A DNA stretch of 64,000 nucleotides from a virus, in the IMG/VR virus record IMGVR_UViG_3300047316_000726, positions 6,949 to 70,948 of that record; one strand, given 5' to 3'. The notes below the pieces were generated by a model. That model made no database searches, was not told where the DNA came from, and saw nothing but the letters and a program-made list of their open reading frames with translations. Shown here one piece after another: positions 1 through 46,136 of this stretch; the stretch's first letter is position 1, and each line of letters opens with the position of its first letter. The position numbers and the translations under genes are program-made.

Positions 1-1815
1 GCCCAGCGGCGCCGCTGGGCCACCACCGTCATCATCGCTGGCGGGGCATGGCTGCTGTGGGCCGCGACATTCGGCCCCACCGAGGTCGCGACGCTGCTGC
101 TCGCCGGTGGGGGTGCGGCGCTGATGCTGCCGTACTGGACTCGCAACAGCCCCTGGCAACCCCACCTCGATCACGACGACGAGGAAGCCCTCGAGGAGTT
201 GCCTGAGGCGCCGACGCTGGAGCCAGTCGAGGTCCTCGACTCCCGAACCTCGACCCAGATGTTCTGGGACACCGTCGTTGCCGTGACCGTGTCCGCACTC
301 CGCGGCACCTACCTGTGCGACCCGCAGGTCACCGACGAGTTCGAGCAGTACACCATCCAACTCGCGGGCGGAACCCAAACCACCGCCGGCGCGATGGGCG
401 CGGCGACGAACGTCGCCTCAGCGTTCGGTCGCGGCCTGGACACCGTGTCGGTCCTCCCTCACCCCAGCGGCGCCCAGGACAAGGCGTTGCTGCGGCTACC
501 CATCGCGAACCCGCTACAGACCACGTTCTGGTACCCGGGCCCCGAGCAGGCCATCGACCTGCGCGACGGCAACATCCGGGTCCTCATCGGCTACCGCGGT
601 GACGGCACCCCCGTGTGGTGGACGTTCTACCTCGCCGACTTCGGCGGTCTCGGTGGCGCTGTGTTCGGCGACACCGGATCCGGTAAGAGCGAACTGCTCC
701 GCAGCCTCATCACGTCCGCCGCCTACAGCAACCTGATCACCCCGATCGTCGCGTGCCCGCAGGGCGGCGCCAGCTATCCGATGTGGATGAACAACGGGCA
801 CTGGCCCGCGGCGAACATCGACGAGATCCTCCGGCAGGGCCGCGCCCTGTTGAAGGCGCACGCCTCCCGCTCCGTGCTCAACAAGCTGATGAACCGCGAC
901 ATCCACATCCCCACCCCGCAAGCACCCGGCCTGATCTGGGTTGTCGACGAGTTCCACAAGATGAAGGGCAACACCGAGTTCTACGACATCGCCGACACCC
1001 TCGAACGCGAAGGCCGCAAGACGTTCATCCGCCTGCTGGCCGCAGACCAGGACCCCAGCGTCCCCGCCACCTTCGGGAACCGGTCGACACTGCGGTACTC
1101 GCTGCTGGCCGCCCAGGCGGTCACGCTGCGCCTGGGCGGCAACGTCGACTCCATGCTGCCGGGCATGCAGCTCGATCCCAGCAAGCTCGCCAAAACGTTC
1201 CCCGACGGCACACCCACCGCAGGCCTGGGCGTCCTGGTGGGAGAGTCCGAGGCGTTCCGGGTCGCTCGCCTGCGCGACGCCGCCGGGCTGGCCGCCAACG
1301 CGCCGACCGGCGCCATCGAGCCCGCAGTCGCGAACCGCATGGGCGAGGACTACACCCAGCGCCACGCCCGCAACCTCACCGACATCGCCGAAGCCGCCGC
1401 CGAGATGGAGCAGTGGGACCCCGAACTGGTCGCCGCCCTCGTCGCGGACAACCCGGAGCTGGCCGCCGCACTACCGCGGGTACGAGCGGAGCAGGCACGC
1501 CGTGCAGCCCAAGCCGCCACCCAGCCCGCCGGAACACCTGCCGCAACTGTGGTGCTGGATGTGCCGTCCATTCCCACGCTGCAGCTCATCCTCCCGTCGC
1601 CCACGGCACCGCCGCGTACGTGGACGTGCGTCGAGCGCGTCGACGACCTGCTCCGCCAAGGCATCACCCAGTTCGGCGAACTCATGGCCAGGGCCCGCAA
1701 GCCTGATGGCACGACCTACTCCGAGACCGCGATCCGCGGAGCACTGCGCGACCTGATCAACCAGGGACGTGCGCGCGACGGTGGCCACGGCCTCTTCGAG
1801 ACCACAGCAGCCTGA
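1..1815 (+). CDS. TraB/FtsK-SpoIIIE family DNA translocase (5' end lies outside the window)
   Basis: Frame open from base 1 with hydrophobic TM segments (WATTVIIAGGAWLLWAATF); Walker A GDTGSGKS; Walker B IWVVDEFH; C-terminal wHTH-like segment (SETAIRGALRDLINQGRA). This is the layout of actinomycete TraB proteins. Confidence 0.8.
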   Translation, partial: AQRRRWATTVIIAGGAWLLWAATFGPTEVATLLLAGGGAALMLPYWTRNSPWQPHLDHDDEEALEELPEAPTLEPVEVLDSRTSTQMFWDTVVAVTVSALRGTYLCDPQVTDEFEQYTIQLAGGTQTTAGAMGAATNVASAFGRGLDTVSVLPHPSGAQDKALLRLPIANPLQTTFWYPGPEQAIDLRDGNIRVLIGYRGDGTPVWWTFYLADFGGLGGAVFGDTGSGKSELLRSLITSAAYSNLITPIVACPQGGASYPMWMNNGHWPAANIDEILRQGRALLKAHASRSVLNKLMNRDIHIPTPQAPGLIWVVDEFHKMKGNTEFYDIADTLEREGRKTFIRLLAADQDPSVPATFGNRSTLRYSLLAAQAVTLRLGGNVDSMLPGMQLDPSKLAKTFPDGTPTAGLGVLVGESEAFRVARLRDAAGLAANAPTGAIEPAVANRMGEDYTQRHARNLTDIAEAAAEMEQWDPELVAALVADNPELAAALPRVRAEQARRAAQAATQPAGTPAATVVLDVPSIPTLQLILPSPTAPPRTWTCVERVDDLLRQGITQFGELMARARKPDGTTYSETAIRGALRDLINQGRARDGGHGLFETTAA

Positions 1816-1826
1816 GAGGGCACGAC

Positions 1827-2414
1827 ATGAGCACACTCATCCCGTCCGTGCCCGGCACCGGGCCCACAGCCAGGCGGCACGGCAGCCGTGCACGCGGCGC
1901 GGGCCGCACCTCGACACCAGCGGTTGTGGTCACGGCACTGGCTGTCGTCGGTGTGATCGGCTTCGTCGGCATCCACGCCGCCACCACAAACACTGTGGTC
2001 GCCGAACCCGCCGGCAGTGCGGTGGCAGACATTCCCGCTGACCATCTCGCCCTGTACCGGGCTGCGGGTTCGATCTGTCCCGGCGTGGACTGGGCTGTGC
2101 TTGCTGGGATCGGGAAGATCGAAACCAACCACGGCCGCTCCACCTTGCCCGGGGTCCACAGTGGGGCGAACTCCGCTGGCGCCGAGGGGGAAATGCAGTT
2201 CCTGCGCGGCACGTGGGACGCGGTCCGTGCACGGCACCCCGACATCGGACCCAACCCGTACGCGGCGAGCGACGCGATCCCCGCGGCCGCCCACTACCTG
2301 TGCGACTCCGGCGCCACCGCAAACCTGTACAGGGCGATCTTTCAGTACAACCACGCCGACTGGTACGTCCGCGAAGTCCTCGACCAGGCCGCCGCATACC
2401 GCGCCGCCGGATGA
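1827..2414 (+). CDS. Lytic transglycosylase (SLT-like), membrane anchored
   Basis: N-terminal TM helix; WAVLAGIGKIETNHG (catalytic Glu), GAEGEMQFLRGTW, AIFQYNHADWYV motifs. Confidence 0.85.
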   Translation: MSTLIPSVPGTGPTARRHGSRARGAGRTSTPAVVVTALAVVGVIGFVGIHAATTNTVVAEPAGSAVADIPADHLALYRAAGSICPGVDWAVLAGIGKIETNHGRSTLPGVHSGANSAGAEGEMQFLRGTWDAVRARHPDIGPNPYAASDAIPAAAHYLCDSGATANLYRAIFQYNHADWYVREVLDQAAAYRAAG

Positions 2415-2432
2415 CTTTTGAGGAGAATCCAC

Positions 2433-3086
2433 ATGATCAAGCAGGTCCTCGTGTCTACCGTCCTCGTCCTCGCGGTCGGCGGCACCGCAGGCGCATGCAC
2501 AGCCGAATCGCTTTCTCCAACCGCGTCCACCCCAACGACGCGGCTGGCGACACTAACGATCCGGCCAGCCGCCCTCACATCGGTACCCGCTGATATCACC
2601 ACCGCGTTCGCCATCGATGGTGACCCCGACCGGGATCGGCCGCTGGGCTCCCGATGCTCACTCCGGTCGCTAGTGATATCCGGACAAGGCACGCATGGCC
2701 ATGGCGATACCGGTGGCCTTTGCGGCACAGCAACTTCCGGTGATTGGACCCCACTGCTGGGCGGCCCGGTCGCGCACGACCCGACCACGCTCGACATCGG
2801 CTACGTGATTCCCCTGGCCGAGGCGTGGCGCTCTGGTGCAAACCAGCCTGACTTCGATCGTGCCGCGTTCGCTACGGACCCCACGTGGGAACGGACTGTG
2901 ATCACGCCCGGCTCGGACCAGGCGCGCGGCGACCATGCCCCGGATGCCTGGCAGCCTGCGGCATCAGCACAGTGCCACTACGTCGGGGCGTGGATCAACG
3001 CCAAGTGGGCCTGGCATCTGAGCATGACCCAGGCCGAACACGACGCGTTCGCTGCTGCCCTTGCCACCTGCCTGCCCACGCCCTGA
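2433..3086 (+). CDS. Secreted/lipoprotein DUF1524-like (HNH-fold) protein, catalytic residues degenerate
   Basis: AGGAG RBS; signal peptide ending GAC; LDIGYVIPLAEAWRSGA...WQP...C.Y...W...K..W.LS matches the DUF1524 pattern, but DH is replaced by GY. Confidence 0.7.
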   Translation: MIKQVLVSTVLVLAVGGTAGACTAESLSPTASTPTTRLATLTIRPAALTSVPADITTAFAIDGDPDRDRPLGSRCSLRSLVISGQGTHGHGDTGGLCGTATSGDWTPLLGGPVAHDPTTLDIGYVIPLAEAWRSGANQPDFDRAAFATDPTWERTVITPGSDQARGDHAPDAWQPAASAQCHYVGAWINAKWAWHLSMTQAEHDAFAAALATCLPTP

Positions 3087-3103
3087 CCTCCAGGAGTCCG
3101 ATC

Positions 3104-3463
3104 ATGCGTAAGTTCGCGCTCGCCGTCATGGCCGTCATCGTGGTGCTCTACATCGTCGGCCACCTCCCGACGTCGGTGGCTGACCAGAAGTCGATCCAGC
3201 AGCAGGTGGCTACCTCGGGCACCACGCCGATCCCGGCCGCCGCGCTCGCCCCAATGGTGGTCAACGGGCCCTCATACCTTCGTGCCGGAGGCGTGCAGCG
3301 GTGGTCCGTGATCTGCATTCCTGCCGACACCGTGCCATTCGAGTTCGACGCCGCCGTGCACTGGCGGGAGGTCGAAGTGTCCGAGCAAGGCCCAGACGGA
3401 CCGGACGGCTATTGGAAGTCGGGCCGCCCGTGCCCGACCGGCAACCTCCTCGCGGGCGGCTGA
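3104..3463 (+). CDS. Hypothetical secreted/membrane protein
   Basis: AGGAG RBS, N-terminal hydrophobic helix, operon packing. Confidence 0.65.
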   Translation: MRKFALAVMAVIVVLYIVGHLPTSVADQKSIQQQVATSGTTPIPAAALAPMVVNGPSYLRAGGVQRWSVICIPADTVPFEFDAAVHWREVEVSEQGPDGPDGYWKSGRPCPTGNLLAGG

Positions 3464-3464
3464 C

Positions 3465-4262
3465 GTGTGCACCGGACGTACTCACGCGATGCAGGGCGCG
3501 ATCGTCGGCCTGGTCGTGCCCGCGCTGTGCCCGACCTTGTTCGGCTACACGCCGAACCTGCCTGCCGTCCTGCTCGGCGCCGTGTTGGCCACGGGCGGCG
3601 CGTTGATCCCGGACTTGGACACTCTCAGCTCGACCGCCACCAGCTCGTTCGGCCCGGTCACCGACCTCGTGTCCAGGATGTTGAGGTGGCTGTCGCGCCT
3701 GGCGTTCCGGCTCACCGCGACCCGCACCGACCGTGCCCGCACCAAGGGCACCCACCGCGGCCTCACCCACACCCTCGTGTTCGCCATCGCGCTGGGCGCC
3801 GCGACCGCATGGCTGGCCGGCTACGGGCTGCCTGCGGTCCTGGCCATCGTGTTCATCGTCAGCTTCCTCGCCCTGCGTGGCCTGCCGCCGGTTGAGAAGA
3901 ACCTGACTGACGTGGTCACGGCGGCCGCGATCACCGGCCTGACGTGGCTCACCGTCGACGTATCGGCACTGCCGGGCTGGTGGGTGGGCGCCGCGATCGG
4001 CGCAGGCGCCCTAACCCACACCCTCGGGGACGCGATCACCGACCAGGGCGTGCCACTGCTCGCACCGATCCCGCTGGGCAACCGAACCTGGCGTCCACTC
4101 GGGACACCCCGGTTCTTGCGGATCTCCACCGGTCACTGGGTCGAGCTGAAGCTGCTGCTGTGGCTCAACAGCGCGGCGTTGGCCGTGCTGCTGATCAACC
4201 TCACACCGGGCGGCCACGAGGACCTGGTCGCGATCCTCGGCCACCACCAGGCCGCGGCCTGA
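3465..4262 (+). CDS. Membrane metal-dependent hydrolase (YdjM-like)
   Basis: GRTH, LIPDLD, HRGLTHT and THTLGD motifs; several TM helices. Confidence 0.85.
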   Translation: MCTGRTHAMQGAIVGLVVPALCPTLFGYTPNLPAVLLGAVLATGGALIPDLDTLSSTATSSFGPVTDLVSRMLRWLSRLAFRLTATRTDRARTKGTHRGLTHTLVFAIALGAATAWLAGYGLPAVLAIVFIVSFLALRGLPPVEKNLTDVVTAAAITGLTWLTVDVSALPGWWVGAAIGAGALTHTLGDAITDQGVPLLAPIPLGNRTWRPLGTPRFLRISTGHWVELKLLLWLNSAALAVLLINLTPGGHEDLVAILGHHQAAA

Positions 4263-6224: not shown

Positions 6225-7193
6225 TCAGGACAGGCCCTTCACGGCCAGCCAGGTTCTGACGGCAGTGGCCGCCTTCTTGTTGTCACCGGTGTGCCGCTCG
6301 CTCAGCCACGTCCGAACAGCTGTTGCCAGAGCCCGGTCGGCCGAGTCCACAGCTGGCGCAGGAGGCTCCGGTGTCGGGGAGGGGCTGGGAGTGCCGCCGG
6401 GAAACGGACGCCCGGTGAGGGCGGTGTAGTCCGCTGCGAGAGAGGACAGGTTCACCCCCTGCTGGAATCCGGTGGCGCCGAGGTGCTCGGGCCAGACCAC
6501 GACGTAGGCCTCCTGGACCTGGTGCTGCCAGAAGGAATCCGTGAGCGCCACGACTTCGGCCCACGTCACGACGGACAGGTCACCGCCCGTCGCCGACGAC
6601 GTGTACGCGCCAGTCAGCACGGCGTGGCCGCCCCACTGCGACGAGGACTGGTAGTCCCACAAGCCGTTGTTGGTCTGCGTCTGCTGTGCCACCTCGAGGT
6701 CGACACCGAGCAGCAGCGATCCGAAGATGGAGACCGCGGCCCGCACCTCGTCCAGGTTGGACACATCGACCGATGCGAACGCCAGAGCCTTCACGCCGCC
6801 GATTCCGCCGGAGACGACGGCTTGCAGCATGGTCTTCATGTCCACGCCGTTGTCGTCGACACCAGTGGCCGGGTCGAAGGTCGGGTTGCCGCTGCGCCGG
6901 TACAGGTCGAACACGTCGGCCTGCGACGGCGAATGCTCGGCGCCGCCCAGGTAGCGGGTGATCAGCTTCCGGCAGTTCGCGACCGACGTCGGCCCGCAGT
7001 CACCGAACTGGTCGTTCTCGTACAAGCCCCAGTCCACGACTTCCGAGAAGTGGTTAGCCGCAGCGGGATGTGCGGGCACGACGCCGGTGAGGTAGCGACC
7101 GAGCTGGAGAGTGCGACGGTTCGGGTCGTGCGGGCGCCGCCCGAGTCGACGGCCGGGCACGAGCTGCGTCTCGACGTGGGCGTCAGCAGGCAT
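6225..7193 (-). CDS. Papain-like cysteine peptidase, putative second endolysin
   Basis: NDQFGDCG (Gln...Cys) and GGHAVL (His) motifs; Pro-rich linker plus helical C-terminal domain; start chosen at GAGAGGA RBS. Confidence 0.6.
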   Translation of the reverse strand: MPADAHVETQLVPGRRLGRRPHDPNRRTLQLGRYLTGVVPAHPAAANHFSEVVDWGLYENDQFGDCGPTSVANCRKLITRYLGGAEHSPSQADVFDLYRRSGNPTFDPATGVDDNGVDMKTMLQAVVSGGIGGVKALAFASVDVSNLDEVRAAVSIFGSLLLGVDLEVAQQTQTNNGLWDYQSSSQWGGHAVLTGAYTSSATGGDLSVVTWAEVVALTDSFWQHQVQEAYVVVWPEHLGATGFQQGVNLSSLAADYTALTGRPFPGGTPSPSPTPEPPAPAVDSADRALATAVRTWLSERHTGDNKKAATAVRTWLAVKGLS

Positions 7194-37274: not shown

Positions 37275-37348
37275 TGACGAGAGCGGGATTCGAACCCGCA
37301 ACGATGCGGGTTTGAGCCGCACGCCTCTGCCAGTTGGGCTACCCCGCC
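37275..37348 (-). tRNA. tRNA-Leu(CAA), short variable loop, CCA not encoded
   Basis: Cloverleaf GGCGGGG-TA-GCCC AACTGGCAGA GGC-G-TGCGG CTCAAAC CCGCA-TCGTT-GCGGG TTCGAAT CCCGC-TCTCGTC-A. Confidence 0.85.
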
Positions 37349-39742: not shown

Positions 39743-40678
39743 TTAGACACAGACCGGGGGCGAAGCGCCAGCACGGGCTTCTGCATCGGCGTGTCGCTTC
39801 GGCTGCCGGATCCGGACTGCGGTCGTGAGGGCCAGGTTCACGATGTCGCCAAGCCGGTACAAGGCGGTGTCGGTGTCCGGGTCGACGCCCTGTTTGACAA
39901 GGCGACGTTCGCCGGTCTCCTTGTCGTCGGTGTTGGCCCAGTTGCGGACCGTCTTCACCGACAGTGGGCGGCCCAGCAGATCCGGCAACGCACGTGAGGC
40001 CTCGGCAGCGGTGACCAGGTAGTGGGCCGATTCCTTGAGTAGCCAGTCCCGGCGTTCGGTGGCGTCGTACTGGGTGCCGCACTCGTTGCATTTGGCAAAG
40101 TCGTCGCCGGGGAAGCCGAAGACCTCGCCGCCGCATTCGGGCACGCACGGTCCGGCGTAGGCGCGGTCGGCGCCCCGGTCGACTGCCCATTCAGCTTTCC
40201 TGATCGCGTCGACAATCTGGGCGTGGGCTTGCCCGGCGATGTCCATGGTGCGCAGCAAGTGGTGGTGGCGGAGTAGCCAGTTCGCCGAGTCGACTGGCGA
40301 GTACATGACGTCTTCGGTTTTGCCGTGGTATCCGGCGATGGTGGAAACCCAGCCGCGTAGGACTGTGTGCAGTTCGCGGAGTGCTCCGGAGGCGTGTTCC
40401 TTCCAGGGCAGTGTTGTTGCGGAGCTGCGGACGGTGATGCCGAGGTTGCGTGCGGCGATCCGGTCGCAGCTGGCGATGGTGAGGTGCAGTTCGTCGACGA
40501 GTGTCCGGTCGGGATTGTTGTTGCCGTCGCGGGCGGGTTCGCAGACCTTGAGGAGTTCACGCCACAGTTCGTCGGCGCAGTCGGTGCAGAGGAACGCGTT
40601 GAAGGCGGGGCGTCCGCAGTCTGCGGTGCACAACCGTTCGGCTGTGGGCGCGGTGGGGTGGCGGGATTTCTGGGACAC
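39743..40678 (-). CDS. Putative late-gene transcription regulator (Zn fingers plus C-terminal HTH)
   Basis: C..CGRP...FLC..C; GPC..CGG...CNECG; C-terminal VTAAEASRAL...LSVKTVRNWA...YRLGDI; early/late boundary position. Confidence 0.65.
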   Translation of the reverse strand: MSQKSRHPTAPTAERLCTADCGRPAFNAFLCTDCADELWRELLKVCEPARDGNNNPDRTLVDELHLTIASCDRIAARNLGITVRSSATTLPWKEHASGALRELHTVLRGWVSTIAGYHGKTEDVMYSPVDSANWLLRHHHLLRTMDIAGQAHAQIVDAIRKAEWAVDRGADRAYAGPCVPECGGEVFGFPGDDFAKCNECGTQYDATERRDWLLKESAHYLVTAAEASRALPDLLGRPLSVKTVRNWANTDDKETGERRLVKQGVDPDTDTALYRLGDIVNLALTTAVRIRQPKRHADAEARAGASPPVCV

Positions 40679-40727
40679 GGCGCACTCCTCGCGGTCGGCT
40701 AGTCCGGAGGGTAACTCCGAGGTGACG

Positions 40728-40814
40728 GAATCAGTCGGATCCGGGCTCGGACTGTGGTGAATCAGTCGGAGTCGAACTCATTCAGTCATGATATGGCTGG
40801 TCAGAGTGACTGAA
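40728..40814. promoter_or_regulatory. Operator-like TCAGTC repeats in a divergent intergenic region
   Basis: GAATCAGTCGGA twice (40728, 40759) plus inverted pair TTCAGTCA / TGACTGAA. Confidence 0.45.
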
Positions 40815-40832
40815 AACGTTCACACTGGTTTC

Positions 40833-41099
40833 ATGGAGACCGTGATAGGTGTCTCCCGCGCATGGGGCCGGCGGGACGGCACTGACGAACTGGCCAGCGA
40901 AGTCGACGGCGAAGACTGCCCGGACTGCGACGCGCACGCGGGCGAGCTGTGCGTGAATTCCTTCACCGGCAACCACACCCGTATCCCGCACCCGCGCCGA
41001 CTTCGCGCGGCACACCGGCGCGGACCGATCACCAACTGTCCACAACGGGTCGAGGTCGTGGACGAGCGGCTAAGCCGCCGCTGGGCGGACTCGGCGTAG
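40833..41099 (+). CDS. Small zinc-finger-like protein
   Basis: CPDCDAHAGELC...H..R motif. Confidence 0.6.
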   Translation: METVIGVSRAWGRRDGTDELASEVDGEDCPDCDAHAGELCVNSFTGNHTRIPHPRRLRAAHRRGPITNCPQRVEVVDERLSRRWADSA

Positions 41100-41264
41100 C
41101 TGCTCCACCTTGGACAGCTCCACCGCGGTGATGTGGTGCGCGCAGGCAGGCGCGTGTCGACTCGGCCACGCAAGGCATTCCCGGCCGCTCCGTGTGGTTC
41201 GGCCGCAGCGCCGCGGTCCGGGCGGGACGTCGACTGGCGCGAGTTCGAAGAGGTAGGCGGTCAC
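41070..41264 (-). CDS. Small zinc-finger protein
   Basis: CGRTTRSGREC...ACAHH. Confidence 0.65.
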   Translation of the reverse strand: MTAYLFELAPVDVPPGPRRCGRTTRSGRECLAWPSRHAPACAHHITAVELSKVEQLRRVRPAAA

Positions 41265-41387
41265 ACCTCATTGACGCTTACCGCGCCGGGCGGTGTCCAA
41301 CCCGATCTCGATACCCTGGCCGTGGTCGTCCTGTTCGGGGTCAGCCGCAGTGCGCCCGGTCCTCGGGGGGACCGGGCGCTTCCACAT

Positions 41388-41672
41388 TCACTGGGAGCGG
41401 CCTGACGAATACCGCTCGCGCAGGTTCTGCGGACCCCTCGACCATGACGTGCGGTCCGGCAGCACATGCTCCTCGCGAGACACAGGCCGCCGTGGACCCG
41501 GCGGGGAGCTGACGCGCGCGATGGCGATCTCGAAGCCGTTGAGGCCGCGGGCTTGCTCGGGATGCAGCTGAACCCACAGGTGGCCGTCAGCGAGGATGTG
41601 CGGGCGCTCGGATGCCGAGATGTGGTTGGTGTCGGCGGCTGCGGTCCAGGTGGCTTCGTCCATGCTGGTCAT
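41388..41672 (-). CDS. Hypothetical protein
   Basis: Plausible N-terminal half; C-terminal half low complexity. Confidence 0.4.
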   Translation of the reverse strand: MTSMDEATWTAAADTNHISASERPHILADGHLWVQLHPEQARGLNGFEIAIARVSSPPGPRRPVSREEHVLPDRTSWSRGPQNLRERYSSGRSQ

Positions 41673-41708
41673 CCTGCGACAGGCCCGGCCTTGATCGCCA
41701 GACATGCG

Positions 41709-42260
41709 CGAGCGCCAGGCCCCATCGTCCGGTGGGATCTCCTGGCGCTCACTTCCAGACCTCACCGCGGTGGACCTGGCAACGGGTCGAGGATAGCCTC
41801 CGGGTGGGCGGGTTCGCTGCCTTCCCAGTCCAGGCGTCCGTGACGGCGATGCCCCCTCACCTGGACGCATTGGGCAGCAGGGTGTTCCCGCGCCGGGTCG
41901 TTGTCACGATCGGCACCGACGGCCAGCCCGTACAAGCCGGGCCGGGAACACCTTCACCCAGAACATGACGGTGCCCCCGAGATCACGCTTCTCGGGGGCA
42001 CCGCGCGGCCTGCCCAGGCCAGAGGCGTAGTCAGCGCCTCGATCATCTACTCCGCACCCACCTGCCATCTAGAGGAGCAGTCTCGACGGTATAGAGCAGC
42101 CGACGACATGGGCAAGCTCGCTGCGAAACCCGGGACGTTCCTGGACGTCCACGGCAAGACAGGACGATGCCCCCGGACCACGAATCCGGGGGCATCACTG
42201 TGGTCCTTGGCAGGGACCGGTGTCCTCACGCACACCCAGTGCAACTTGGAGGAGATGGCC
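41709..42260 (-). ncRNA. Candidate ~550-nt structured ncRNA
   Basis: About 700-nt gene gap with perfect 14-, 12- and 10-bp stems and several shorter helices; TTGCTC-18-TAGCGT promoter-like motif at 42293-42264. Confidence 0.45.
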
Positions 42261-42386
42261 ACGACGCTACGGAGCGGGCGCCGGATCGAGCAAGCTGGTG
42301 GGCGAAGTCGGAGCGTTCATGAACGTTCGCGACGATCATGAAGGTGCTGCACATTCGCAGAGTGGACACGATTCAGAAGGTGCCGG

Positions 42387-42587
42387 TCACCTGTCCCGTG
42401 GCAGTACCGGGATGTCGACACCGGCGTAGTCCCGTGCCAGCATCTCCAGCTCGACCAGCACAGCCTCGATCTTCCCGCCCTTCAGCAGGACCGCGAGCGC
42501 ACCGAACACCTCGCCGAACGTGGTGACATCCAGGGACCCGTCAGCGCCGGGTATGGATGGGAACGCGTACAGCCGGGCGTCAGCCAC
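42387..42587 (-). CDS. Hypothetical protein
   Basis: Protein-like composition, GAGGAG RBS. Confidence 0.6.
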   Translation of the reverse strand: MADARLYAFPSIPGADGSLDVTTFGEVFGALAVLLKGGKIEAVLVELEMLARDYAGVDIPVLPRDR

Positions 42588-42669
42588 GACGGCTCCTCGG
42601 GCAGCGGGGACTCAACGGTAGCGCGGCACTCCGACAAGACCTTGGTCGCCACGGCGCCTATCGAGCAGA

Positions 42670-42990
42670 TCACTCGGGTGGCCTCATTGTGGTGAGTAGC
42701 ACGTTGAATGTGATCTTGGAGCCATGGGGGCATTCCAACACGTAGACGGACGTGTAGAGCGTCTTTGTGGGGTCTTCAGGATCTTCCCTGCTGGTGGTGC
42801 CGGTCGAGACCACTCGGGTGTCAATGCAGCTGGTGAGGTGCTCGTCCGGGAACGAGTCGTGGAGGAGGCGGAACACCGCCACGTTGTCACCCATGCCGTC
42901 CATGGTGACACCGGGAACCGTCACCCGCTCGTCACCCATCATCCCGAACCACTCTGTCGACAGCGCATCCTCGATTGGAGTGTCCGCCAT
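42670..42990 (-). CDS. Acidic hypothetical protein
   Basis: MADTPIEDAL... ORF. Confidence 0.55.
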   Translation of the reverse strand: MADTPIEDALSTEWFGMMGDERVTVPGVTMDGMGDNVAVFRLLHDSFPDEHLTSCIDTRVVSTGTTSREDPEDPTKTLYTSVYVLECPHGSKITFNVLLTTMRPPE

Positions 42991-43000
42991 GGATGGTAGG

Positions 43001-43258
43001 TGTCCGGGGTGGTGTCCGGCCAGGAGAGTGGACGGGTGTTGGACGTTCTTGGACGGTGTGGACGATCCCGGACAGTCAAGCCGGACAGCCGGACAGTGGG
43101 TGCGGACACCCCGGACAACGGTGGACAACCCTGGACAGCGGGTGTGAACTCGCGTGGCATTTTATGCCCCGTGCAGGTCAGAGGGCCGCGACTGTCCTGG
43201 CTGGACACGGCCGGACAGTGCTACGGACACCCCGAGGACGACACCGACTCCCTGGACA
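43001..43258 (+). repeat. Array of (C/T)GGACA short direct repeats with central palindrome GGCATTTTATGCC
   Basis: GGACA-core copies at 43067, 43081, 43089, 43102, 43111, 43122, 43131, 43201, 43211, 43223, 43252; inverted copies at 43001 and 43013; palindrome at 43156-43168. Confidence 0.75.
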
Positions 43259-43525
43259 GCGAGCGCGACGTGGTCATGACCGGCTGCTCTGGCGACGAAC
43301 GCGGCTACGGCGGCCAGGACTTGCAACACCTTGAGGACACCCGCGGCTCGGGCTGTACGACTACTGGGGCGGTGGGGTTGTGGACTCATGCCGCCGAGCA
43401 TCAACGACCCCGGCCAGCCCGCGCACAGATAGGAGAGTGAGAGGGCGGCGGGGACAAGAGGAAGTGGTGTTCATCCATCTGTTGGTCCCCGCCACCACGA
43501 GCACCGTACCGGGACGACACCGGGC

Positions 43526-43845: not shown

Positions 43846-44484
43846 TCAAAGTCCCAGCTTCTCGAGCGGGTTGGTCAGATTGACGAACAGCGTGATCACG
43901 TCCGCGTCGTACGGCCACCGCGCCACACCGCCGTCGATGTCCAGGTGGCAGAGGGTGCGGCTGGGCATGGTGTAGCCGATCTCCAGCGGAACTCGGCCAG
44001 GACCGATGTGGTGCGGCATGATCAGACGCTCGGCGTAGTCACGCGGGCATGACGGCAGCAGGCTCGCCGCCACGGTGCGCTCGACGAGGATCGGCTCGTC
44101 CCACTCCAAGTAGCCGTCCTGGTCGGCGCAGTTCTGATCGACATCGACGACAGCGCGAAACGGGCCAGGCAGATCAGCGACCGCCGCCGCGTTCTCGGCA
44201 CGGCAGCGATCCGGCTGCGGCGAGGGCACGCGGCCGATGCGGATCTGTCCGTAATTGCCGACGTGCCTTCCTGCGAAGACGCAGACGAACGCGGCGACCT
44301 GGTTGAGCGGCCAGTTATTACGGGAACTCCGGAAGATCTGGCCGATCGTGTCCACGTAGCTGGCCTTGAATCTGCGCCCGGCTTTCAAGTCGGCGCGGAC
44401 GCGGGCGAACTCGGCGGCTCCTTCCGGGTCGGACAGGATGCTGGAGAGCGCCACGTCTGCGGCTTGCTCGTGAATGGTGGTCAT
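43846..44484 (-). CDS. Hypothetical protein
   Basis: AGGAG RBS, overlaps the recombinase stop. Confidence 0.65.
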   Translation of the reverse strand: MTTIHEQAADVALSSILSDPEGAAEFARVRADLKAGRRFKASYVDTIGQIFRSSRNNWPLNQVAAFVCVFAGRHVGNYGQIRIGRVPSPQPDRCRAENAAAVADLPGPFRAVVDVDQNCADQDGYLEWDEPILVERTVAASLLPSCPRDYAERLIMPHHIGPGRVPLEIGYTMPSRTLCHLDIDGGVARWPYDADVITLFVNLTNPLEKLGL

Positions 44485-45551
44485 GGGCGGGGAACTCCTC
44501 GACTCGCGTGGGCAGTAGGCGTGCCACCAGCGAGCGCGGCGGCGACCAAGGTGGACGGGTCACGTTCGAGTTCGTCGGCGACGTGGTCGTAGAGCTGGGT
44601 GACGGCGGCGGAGGAGTGGCCGAGCGCGTCGCGGCGGTCTTCCAGCGTCGCGCCGAGCTCGCGGGCGATCGTGTTCCAGGTATGCCGCAGCGAGTGCGGG
44701 GTGATCCGGTGGGGCATCGGTACGCCGGCGAGCGCGGCCATGCGCTGCACGAGTCGGAAGACCTGGTGGCGGCTGACTCGGCGACCGTCCCGGGTCAGCA
44801 GCAGCGCGCGGTCGGCGTCCAGATTGCCCGGCGCAGGCGCAGGCCGAGCCGCGAGGTAGGTGTCCAGCTTTGCGCCGAGTTCGGGTGGGATGACGCGGTC
44901 GCGCATCTTGCTGCCCTTCATACGGACGGCGATGATGCGCTTGCCCTTCTTCTGGCCGAGGTCGTCCAGGTTCGCCCCGCAGCCTTCGGACACGCGGATA
45001 CCGAGGTCCACCAGCAGTCCGAAGATCAGCGTGACGCACTCGGCGGTCAGCGTCCGTGGTGTTCCGGTCTCGCTCTTCGCTTGGACCGCGGTGGCCTGCT
45101 GGCGGTCGAGACTGGATGTGGGGGAGTGGGTGCGGTCGTACTTCGGGCGCTTGAGGTCCTTGGCCGGGTTGGCCTTCAGCACGTCGGCCCGGACGAGGTA
45201 GGTGTACCAGCTGGACACTGCGGCGAGCATGTTCGCCCTGGTGTTGGGCTTGTAGGGGCGCTTGGTGGTCGGACTGGTCATCGAGGCGAGGTGGACTCCG
45301 TACATCGTGATCTCGGGCAGACCGACGGTCAGCGGGTCGAGGTCGCGGCTGATGCACCAGTCGAGGTAGATGTTGAGCTGCCGCCGGTAGGACTCGCGGG
45401 TGTGCTCGCTGTCGGCCTGCTCGCCGAGCCACGCCATCACAAGCGCGCCGAGCGTGTGGCCCGTGCGGGTGCGCATGGAGAGCAGCGCGCCGCGCCGCGC
45501 GGCTGGTGAAGCTGGGTCGGCAACCGGGTTGATGATCACAAGGTCGGCCAC
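44481..45551 (-). CDS. XerC/D-like tyrosine recombinase
   Basis: SAM-like N-domain; catalytic R (GIRVSE), K (MKGSK), HxxR (HSLRH), LGHSS, Y (QLYD); GAAGGGA RBS before GTG at 45551. Confidence 0.9.
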   Translation of the reverse strand: MADLVIINPVADPASPAARRGALLSMRTRTGHTLGALVMAWLGEQADSEHTRESYRRQLNIYLDWCISRDLDPLTVGLPEITMYGVHLASMTSPTTKRPYKPNTRANMLAAVSSWYTYLVRADVLKANPAKDLKRPKYDRTHSPTSSLDRQQATAVQAKSETGTPRTLTAECVTLIFGLLVDLGIRVSEGCGANLDDLGQKKGKRIIAVRMKGSKMRDRVIPPELGAKLDTYLAARPAPAPGNLDADRALLLTRDGRRVSRHQVFRLVQRMAALAGVPMPHRITPHSLRHTWNTIARELGATLEDRRDALGHSSAAVTQLYDHVADELERDPSTLVAAALAGGTPTAHASRGVPRP

Positions 45552-45565
45552 GGATTTCCCTTCGT

Positions 45566-45593
45566 TGCGCCCATAAGCGTGATTATGCTCGGT
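45566..45593. promoter_or_regulatory. dif/res-like recombination site overlapping the recombinase promoter
   Basis: TGCGCCCATAA-GCGTGA-TTATGCTCGGT (11-6-11); - strand TTGGGG-17-CATAAT promoter overlaps it. Confidence 0.65.
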
Positions 45594-45681
45594 TTTCCTA
45601 GGTGCCCCAACCGGTCCGCCCCGATCGGGCCGGTGGTCAAGTCCGTCCGGTTCGGACGGTCCCCCAGCGTGCGGTGCTGAT

Positions 45682-46046
45682 CTACGCGGTGCCGACGTCG
45701 CTTTCCTCGGCGTCCATGACGATCGGGTCGTCCAGGGTGGCCGCCACGATGGTGACCACCTCGACATGCCCCCCCGAGCCTGTTCCTCGGTCGAGTACCG
45801 GTGGCAGTCCAGGTCCATGCTGCTGCCCTCGGCGAACACCATCGTCTCGAAGATCATCGGGATGCCGTCGCAGTGGCTGTGGTCCAGGCCGAGCCAGACG
45901 GTCGAGATGTCGAAGCTCTTGGTCGGGTCAGCTGCGCTGATCACTTTGGATCGAGCGACCCGCTTGTAGGTCATGTCTCGCAGGAGCCGCTCGACCTCTT
46001 GCATGTCGTTGATGGGGATGCCTGAGCGGTCGAACCAGAGGTCCAT
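45682..46046 (-). pseudogene. Phage hypothetical gene frameshifted at a G7 tract
   Basis: STVWLGLDH...IFETMVF...RYSTEEQARGG; one extra G restores HVEVVTIVAA...TAG and a 121-aa ORF. Confidence 0.6.
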
Positions 46047-46136
46047 CGGCGCTGCCCTCTCGTGTCGATCTTGGTGGGGTGGTCCCCCGGTGTATCGGGT
46101 CCTAGGGGCCCGAACACGGTGCAACGGGTCGGACGA

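Follow-up and report, generated by a model that had tools for sequence, protein, structure and literature searches.

A mosaic non-coding island with two candidate small-RNA cassettes near the integrase of a soil actinophage

The gap and its relatives

The DNA analyzed here is a stretch of 64,000 nucleotides (hereafter the window) that spans positions 6,949 to 70,948 of IMG/VR record IMGVR_UViG_3300047316_000726, a 77,174-nt record labelled provirus that originates from a soil metagenome and has a G+C content of about 67%. Two genes on the minus strand, which carries most genes in this part of the window, are separated by a gene-free gap of 714 nt (41673-42386), 2.1 kb and three genes away from a tyrosine integrase. 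We read the phage as a temperate soil actinophage and the gap as part of a variable region beside the integrase. A first-pass annotation of the sequence had placed a single non-coding RNA of about 550 nt in this gap, whereas comparison with related contigs supports a genuine non-coding gap that is composed of three swappable modules, not of one large RNA.

Nothing in the gap points to a protein. The open reading frames (ORFs) tested there matched no family in Pfam, PHROG or NCBIfam, the translations inspected are rich in Arg, Trp, Cys and Pro and not protein-like, and an independent gene call on an identical 43-kb contig from a public run also leaves the gap empty. A decayed or frameshifted coding sequence would be in keeping with two long plus-strand ORFs (118 and 146 aa) and with a locally high G+C content at third codon positions (GC3) at 41700-41850 in one plus frame, yet the substitutions relative to the contig L247 look non-coding in all six frames, being mostly non-synonymous or falling in frames with stops, and the proteins that relatives encode at the gap position have left no trace in it (all E > 0.05). 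With the substitution pattern non-coding and gene remnants lacking, we give this explanation a very slim chance, and the non-coding assignment, against which a frameshifted gene had been named in advance as a refuting case, stands.

Close relatives of the locus are few. Four short contigs were found via the flanking proteins and are collinear with the window in part. Contig L243 matches 42639-42158 at 79% identity and 41377-39928 at 72%, with an unrelated 103-aa gene between the two; L247 carries the 66-aa gene that lies upstream of the gap (81%), followed by an unrelated 131-aa gene and then by counterparts of 41954-41791 (89.6%) and 41707-41655 (77%); and L246 holds the 66-aa gene (87-89%), the promoter region and 42040-42006 (89%). 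A contig of 151 nt from a second soil metagenome covers 41893-42040. As the relative contigs each share a different part, the gap is composite, with at least three modules (A, B and C; Table 1) in varying combinations, and on this comparison the modules are separable and have separate evolutionary histories.

Wider searches added little. A blastn search with 40500-43500 gave no match among phages and plasmids, single flanking proteins found no related loci among viral contigs, and exact 24-26-mers of modules A and C were absent from the viral contigs, in which a generic hairpin scan returned 116 unrelated loci. Terminase relatives numbered 210 in the viral contigs, and one similar hairpin is all that the 25 longest records have in common with the gap. 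Homologues of the 66-aa gene occur in L243, L246, L247 and L248, the last a distant locus with an unrelated downstream region and the only one returned when an alignment of the protein was searched against metagenome contigs; the protein has no family match, and tblastn against phages found none.

As a separate observation, the DNA downstream of the 66-aa gene differs among the five contigs that carry it: a small-RNA-like cassette, another RNA body, the 131-aa gene or unrelated coding DNA on the opposite strand. The 3' end of this gene appears to be a recombination hot spot.

The stems listed for the gap in the first-pass annotation are all present. Hairpin 1 is a perfect 14-bp stem (41969-41982/41990-42003) and hairpin 2 a perfect 12-bp stem (42166-42177/42185-42196), each with a 7-nt loop; to these are added a perfect 10-bp stem (41710-41719/41741-41750), a 21-nt stem that is 81% complementary (41881-41901/41932-41952) and the short stems GAGGCG/CGCCTC, TCCAGG/CCTGGA and GGACGT/ACGTCC. 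Five of the six copies of GRTGCCCCC in the window fall in 41848-42196, and the paired form TGCCCCCGR...YCGGGGGCA occurs twice in the window, against 0.00 expected from shuffles. Folded as a whole, the gap is more stable than 20 shuffles per strand (z = -3.1 for the minus and -6.7 for the plus strand). A sliding scan of 150 nt gave z down to -6.0 (plus) and -2.9 (minus) in 41875-42099, which holds the long hairpin and hairpin 1, and -3.5 (plus) and -1.9 (minus) in 42100-42249, which holds hairpin 2; elsewhere in the gap |z| does not exceed 1.3, the background level. The excess folding is local to the hairpins and does not extend across 550 nt.

One large structured RNA of about 550 nt, similar to GOLLD, ROOL or raiA, would fit a gap that out-folds its shuffles on both strands and contains many stems. 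However, only three hairpin regions show excess stability, the relatives carry the parts separately and recombined, and terminator-type hairpins and promoter-like sites lie inside the supposed RNA. Rfam models run over the whole window at gathering scores found only a tRNA (37275-37348), and a cmscan of 41300-42700 at E <= 10 listed neither raiA, to which a resemblance had been suggested, nor GOLLD or ROOL, its matches being a sub-threshold PtaRNA1, a partial sodF_sRNA and noise. Such an RNA is very unlikely here: conserved, structured RNA-like elements are present as first proposed, but they belong to three modules with separate histories. The sodF sRNA (RF02790) was rejected as an identity, as the match reaches 29.5 bits where 46 are required, only the terminator hairpin (hairpin 1) aligns, and 35 positions of the model are skipped.

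Table 1. Features of the gap and its surroundings, in window coordinates.
Feature	Position	Strand	Description
Upstream flanking gene	42387-42587	-	66 aa, GC3-biased ORF; stop codon TGA at 42389-42387
Module A	42386-42158		palindrome, promoter-like site and RNA-like body of ~100 nt ending in hairpin 2
Module A, regulatory part	42300-42386		near-invariant non-coding stretch
Promoter-like P_A	42264-42293	-	-35 TTGCTC, 18-nt spacer, -10 TAGCGT
Candidate small RNA A	42158-42259	-	~100 nt, z = -3.0
Hairpin 2	42166-42196		terminator-type; L243 keeps the stem, two loop bases change
Module B	about 42115-41960		promoter-like P_B, body of ~120 nt and hairpin 1
Promoter-like P_B	42086-42115	-	TTGCCC-18-TACCGT
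Candidate small RNA B	41960-42080	-	~120 nt, z = -3.0
Hairpin 1	41969-42003		terminator-type, possibly bidirectional
Module C	41791-41954	+ favored, uncertain	conserved non-coding structured element including the long hairpin 41881-41952
Candidate promoter P_C	41771-41799	+	TGGACC-17-TAGCCT; inferred
58-nt insertion	41708-41765		carries the perfect 10-bp hairpin 41710-41750; absent from L247
Downstream flanking gene	41388-41672	-	orphan, 91-94 aa, GC3 bias
Tyrosine integrase	44481-46124		547 aa
PHROG_908 protein	39743-40678		distant homologues are annotated as helix-turn-helix proteins

Candidate small RNAs A and B and their hairpins

Module A is 85% identical to its counterpart in L243, compared to 72% for adjacent coding DNA, and the first ~80 nt past the stop codon of the 66-aa gene are about 91% identical. 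Its regulatory part contains the perfect 14-bp palindrome ACGTTCATGAACGT at 42314-42327, which is unique in the window and perfect over 20 bp in L243, together with two copies of a 16-nt direct repeat (42332-42347 and 42368-42383); we read the palindrome and repeats as operator-like, putative regulator sites. The module has a single ORF, which a 1-nt indel disrupts in L243. Promoter-like P_A, which the first-pass annotation had reported, is indeed in place. L243 and L246 keep it in the forms TTGTCC-17-TAGCGT and TTGCCC-18-TAGTGT, respectively, with a spacer that varies. Candidate small RNA A therefore has what is looked for in a small-RNA gene, a promoter of its own, here a predicted one, that is conserved in relatives.

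The predicted small RNA A begins with a 5' CAUCUCCUCC stretch, continues with stem P1, the helices GCAC/GUGC and GGUCC/GGACC and hairpin 2, and closes with CGUCCUGUCUU. Its body is conserved in L243 through hairpin 2, directly after which homology stops. Folded separately, the window and L243 sequences adopt the same four-helix layout; they differ at nine positions of an 11-nt patch, and in each of them this patch is paired, in a shifted register, to the invariant CAUCUCCUC stretch at the 5' end, with no column-wise compensatory pair between the two sequences.

Module B repeats this organization. Its promoter-like site is identical to P_A at 23 of 35 positions (counted by eye), and the pattern TTGCNC-N17-19-TANCGT, which was derived from these two sites, occurs in the 64-kb window at P_A and P_B only. 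The predicted small RNA B consists of a 5' CUGCUCCUCU stretch, the small hairpins GAGGCG/CGCCUC and GGCC/GGCC, hairpin 1 and then CGUCAUGUUCU. The part of it that L246 shares (E = 4e-8) includes both small hairpins, which are identical in L246 and lie there 70 nt downstream of the P_A-like promoter, and the sole indel in the 151-nt contig of the second metagenome falls in the linker that joins these two hairpins. Furthermore, the flank ACAKGACGRTGCCCCCG is common to hairpins 1 and 2. Because of the promoter pattern, the CUCCUC start, the context of the small hairpins in L246 and this shared flank, we read A and B as tandem paralogous cassettes.

To characterize the hairpins, we considered their occurrence outside the phage. 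An exact search of reference genomes with the pattern GACGRTGCCCCCG-N9-11-CGGGGGCAYC gave more than 120 matches, with one or two at each locus; nearly all are in Actinomycetota, where they are spread over many genera. For 62% of the matches, the end of a GC3-rich ORF lies within 120 nt in one or both directions, and 31% are located between the ends of convergent ORFs. The core GCCCCCG...CGGGGGC is only about twice as frequent as its reversed control in five genomes, and the raw count of pattern matches is not above a rough chance estimate. The count is therefore no evidence of a family, and the evidence is instead in the recurrent flanks: the positions around the search pattern are strongly biased, with ACAY before it and a partial GTC after it (ACAY / RTGT), so that the hairpin stems extend beyond the pattern itself.

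The form (GG)ACAY-GACGRTGCCCCCG...CGGGGGCAYCGTC-RTGT was seen to recur in many Actinomycetota genera (loci L119-L238; e.g., L121:144-178 and L131:3352-3387), usually just past stop codons or between convergent genes and with flank biases such as A 64% and C 65% at single positions. These recurrent actinobacterial hairpins may represent a sequence-conserved terminator class that is broader than TRIT, the sequence-conserved palindromic terminator of Mycobacterium that was reported from Mycobacterium only and is centered about 8 nt before the stop codon (PMC3152330).

Term-seq in Streptomyces clavuligerus has described intrinsic terminators in which the 5' arm is C-rich, the 3' arm is G-rich and the 8 nt past the stem include three or more U (PMC8269248). 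On the minus strand, the tails of the two hairpins (GUCCUGUC and UCAUGUUC) hold three and four U by our own count, and on the plus strand three and one, so that, judged by their sequence, hairpins 1 and 2 correspond to actinobacterial U-rich intrinsic terminators. Like TRIT and the Streptomyces terminators, they have long GC stems, C-rich 5' and G-rich 3' arms, loops in the 4-8-nt range and U-containing tails; they are palindromic and of a kind that is often bidirectional at gene ends, and, as in TRIT, the stem sequence itself recurs. Unlike TRIT, the hairpin type seen here occurs in many genera and past stop codons. The two are set apart by the published description of TRIT, whose consensus is given only in a figure, and the likeness is an analogy, not a match.

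Since the hairpins are of a generic gene-end type, the repeated GRTGCCCCC motif is accounted for without the alternative pairings that had been suggested for it, its copies being the arms of hairpins common at Actinomycetota gene ends. The same consideration bears on the idea that these copies and the palindromes are DNA sites, such as attP arms, operators or a partition or replication locus. Five copies do cluster in 350 bp at a distance of 2 kb from the tyrosine integrase, and the separate invariant palindrome at 42314-42327 is best read as a protein site. Yet four of the five copies are arms of the two perfect 12-14-bp hairpins, neither a tRNA-like segment nor another core is present in the gap, three genes intervene before the integrase, and the gap shares no repeat of more than 14 nt with other parts of the record, which leaves the DNA-site explanation quite improbable. 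A phage attP in particular was rejected on the position of the gap, the nature of its repeats and the lack of a tRNA-like segment, with the core judged without the host attB. Across the whole 77,174-nt record, the integrase is found mid-record despite the provirus label, and no att-like direct repeat of 19 nt or more occurs anywhere.

Module C and the 58-nt insertion

Module C corresponds to L247:1478-1641, from which it differs by 17 substitutions. Its plus-strand consensus fold comprises 54 pairs, of which two are compensatory, five are kept through G-U and none is broken, compared to 47 pairs and no compensatory change for the minus-strand fold. In L247, 6 nt separate the module from a tRNA-like gene of 102 nt, which is encoded on the counterpart of the window's plus strand; because of this gene, a plus-strand promoter would have to lie in or beyond module C. 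P_C is the best candidate for it, its flanks being kept in L247 around a variable 16-nt spacer. Module C could be part of a plus-strand RNA of about 200 nt (about 41806-42005) that ends at hairpin 1. Module C and the adjoining leader precede unrelated genes in the window and in L247, and these genes have only the ribosome-binding site and about six codons in common.

The tRNA-like gene itself (L247:1370-1471, minus strand) scores 46 bits against RF00005 and has 40 nt in the anticodon arm where 11 are expected. It is not called by ARAGORN, and it ends at a bidirectional GC hairpin.

The 58-nt insertion contributes to the sub-threshold PtaRNA1 match (RF01811) at 41782-41704 on the minus strand. 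Were this segment an antisense antitoxin of the PtaRNA1 type, the gap would contain half of a type I toxin-antitoxin system, and the match is full-length (E = 6e-5 in a 500-nt search), has a two-hairpin layout like that of PtaRNA1 and shares a few single-stranded motifs with it. However, it reaches 33.7 bits where the gathering score is 47, and it carries a 19-nt insertion in the terminator loop. Its 3' half is the insertion that L247 lacks and its 5' half is flanking sequence; because a conserved flank and an insertion make it up, the match is a chimera. The plus-strand ORFs opposite it (41612-41968 and 41466-41843) have no NCBIfam or Pfam match that would identify a toxin, and the translation of the first is not protein-like. 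A PtaRNA1-type antitoxin is barely credible at this position, and the identity was rejected on its score, on the toxin not found and on its not being inherited as a unit, with L247 devoid of 41708-41765 while keeping the flanks.

Interpretation and known systems

Collectively, the locus is best explained, with a probability that we put at about 0.5, as a mosaic non-coding island of two tandem small-RNA cassettes and one conserved structured element. Each cassette would be transcribed on the minus strand from a predicted HrdB-type promoter (TTGCYC-18-TAnCGT), the first one behind the palindrome and repeats that resemble regulator binding sites, and would yield an RNA whose body, about 100-120 nt long, opens with a C/U-rich CUCCUC stretch and ends in a host-type intrinsic terminator hairpin (a GRUGCCCCCG stem, then CGUCNUGU). 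Transcription of module C would probably run along the plus strand to hairpin 1, which would make this hairpin bidirectional, and the 58-nt insertion with its hairpin would lie in the leader of the downstream gene. The CUCCUC stretches would pair with Shine-Dalgarno regions of target mRNAs and block their translation; sites complementary to the 5' stretch of small RNA A comprise only matches with three mismatches, whose positions do not clearly coincide with gene starts. Conservation extends to the promoter hexamers, the RNA bodies and the hairpins, and the hairpins are of a generic type; from the sequence we infer the transcription, the RNA ends, the strand, the binding of a regulator and the anti-Shine-Dalgarno mechanism. 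The cassettes probably represent new phage small RNAs.

The main competing explanation is that the gap contains cis-acting signals only, with hairpin 2 (and hairpin 1 as a back-up) terminating the operon that runs from the integrase to the 66-aa gene after a long 3' untranslated region (UTR), and with module C and the leader serving as promoter and 5' UTR of the downstream operon. Both hairpins are of a generic terminator type, lie downstream of this minus-strand operon and have U-containing minus-strand tails, and module C, the leader and the first codons travel together before different genes in the window and L247, as this explanation would have it. It does not readily account for the -35 and -10 hexamers that are kept, with variable spacers, upstream of both RNA bodies, nor for the conservation with L243, which begins at the stop codon, is strongest over the non-coding DNA and stops precisely at hairpin 2. 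Moreover, L246 joins the same promoter to a different body, and the G-U pairs and z-scores of module C favor the plus strand. Taken together, we consider cis-acting signals alone rather unlikely.

Several results weigh against the small-RNA cassettes and the structured element that we favor. A generic scan for sigma-70 promoters and terminators found no site, while the A/T-rich promoter consensus and run-of-T rule of that scan fit a phage of ~67% G+C poorly, and the resemblance of P_B to the L246 promoter (77% over 35 nt, E = 0.13) is not significant alone. One stem change in hairpin 2 of L243 leaves a G-U pair if the plus strand is read but an A-C mismatch if the minus strand is, and the minus-strand fold compensates with another pair. 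For module C, 132 of 500 shuffles reach the covariation observed between the two sequences, which is not significant, and threading L247 onto the window's own fold gave 0.87 and 0.31, no better than random substitutions; because these controls are not significant, its strand and structure are provisional. Each module is covered by two sequences, in part by three, and a segment of high identity in a mosaic phage genome can result from recent exchange rather than selection. Finally, a search of public runs for the gap sequence of this uncultured phage found it in two soil-metagenome DNA runs and in no RNA run.

Prophage-encoded small RNAs such as DicF and IsrK are found in enterobacteria. The cassettes resemble these and phage morons in being self-contained promoter-terminator units within a mosaic, swappable region that would produce short RNAs with an intrinsic terminator. 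They have no sequence or Rfam relationship to these systems and differ from them in that they belong to a phage of an uncultured high-GC actinobacterial host and occur as two paralogous cassettes in tandem. C-rich small RNAs such as 6C and RsaE/RoxS pair with Shine-Dalgarno regions and thereby block translation. Small RNAs A and B would be similar to 6C (RF01066, Actinobacteria) and RsaE/RoxS (Firmicutes) in that they are short, end in a terminator and have exposed or semi-exposed C/U-rich stretches, whereas they have no Rfam match and their C/U-rich stretch is 5'-terminal and partly paired in stem P1 instead of being located in hairpin loops; the functional analogy to C-rich seed RNAs is tentative.

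The regulatory RNAs of actinobacteriophages are almost uncharted. If the cassettes are expressed, they would constitute new phage small RNAs with a recognizable layout of promoter, seed and terminator and with an apparent operator, and would offer a handle on how temperate soil actinophages tune the translation of their host or their own. The locus also indicates that long perfect GC stems of shared sequence, when they occur in the DNA of high-GC phages, are of generic terminator type and, alone, no evidence for a large structured RNA.

A broader interpretation, which is possible though doubtful, is that soil actinophages of this group use the site past the 66-aa gene as a dedicated locus for swapping non-coding RNA modules, with tandem small RNAs of an undescribed family that bear a 5' CUCCUC seed and have one promoter type under an invariant operator, and with a plus-strand RNA of ~200 nt. 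In the same interpretation this RNA would be fused upstream of the tRNA-like gene in L247, an arrangement that suggests release by RNase P, and, with relatives carrying Ro60/Y-RNA modules in the same neighborhood, the region could be a phage toolkit to manipulate host RNA or translation.

The contig L245, a distant relative, encodes a TROVE/Ro60 protein (1515-3149, minus strand) in a neighborhood equivalent to the gap, with two sub-threshold matches to YrlA (Y RNA-like) at 3231-3310 and 3471-3537 on the same strand, just upstream of the TROVE gene. For the phage of the window itself, a Ro60/Y RNA pair was rejected, as the record has no TROVE gene and the sole YrlA-like match is the phage tRNA.

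On the downstream side, the ATG at 41663, preceded by an AGGA ribosome-binding site, is the probable start of the orphan gene, and the sole database match of the 91-aa protein is itself. A second stable-fold patch (z ~-3 on both strands) surrounds the stop codon of this gene at 41275-41499, where Rfam matches are at noise level. Further on, 41091-41386 on the minus strand encodes a homologue of a 111-aa gene of L243 (45% identity over 101 aa) with an in-frame stop at ~41266; only its C-terminal part (41070-41264) is an intact ORF. The homologue is possibly a pseudogene or a gene in two parts.

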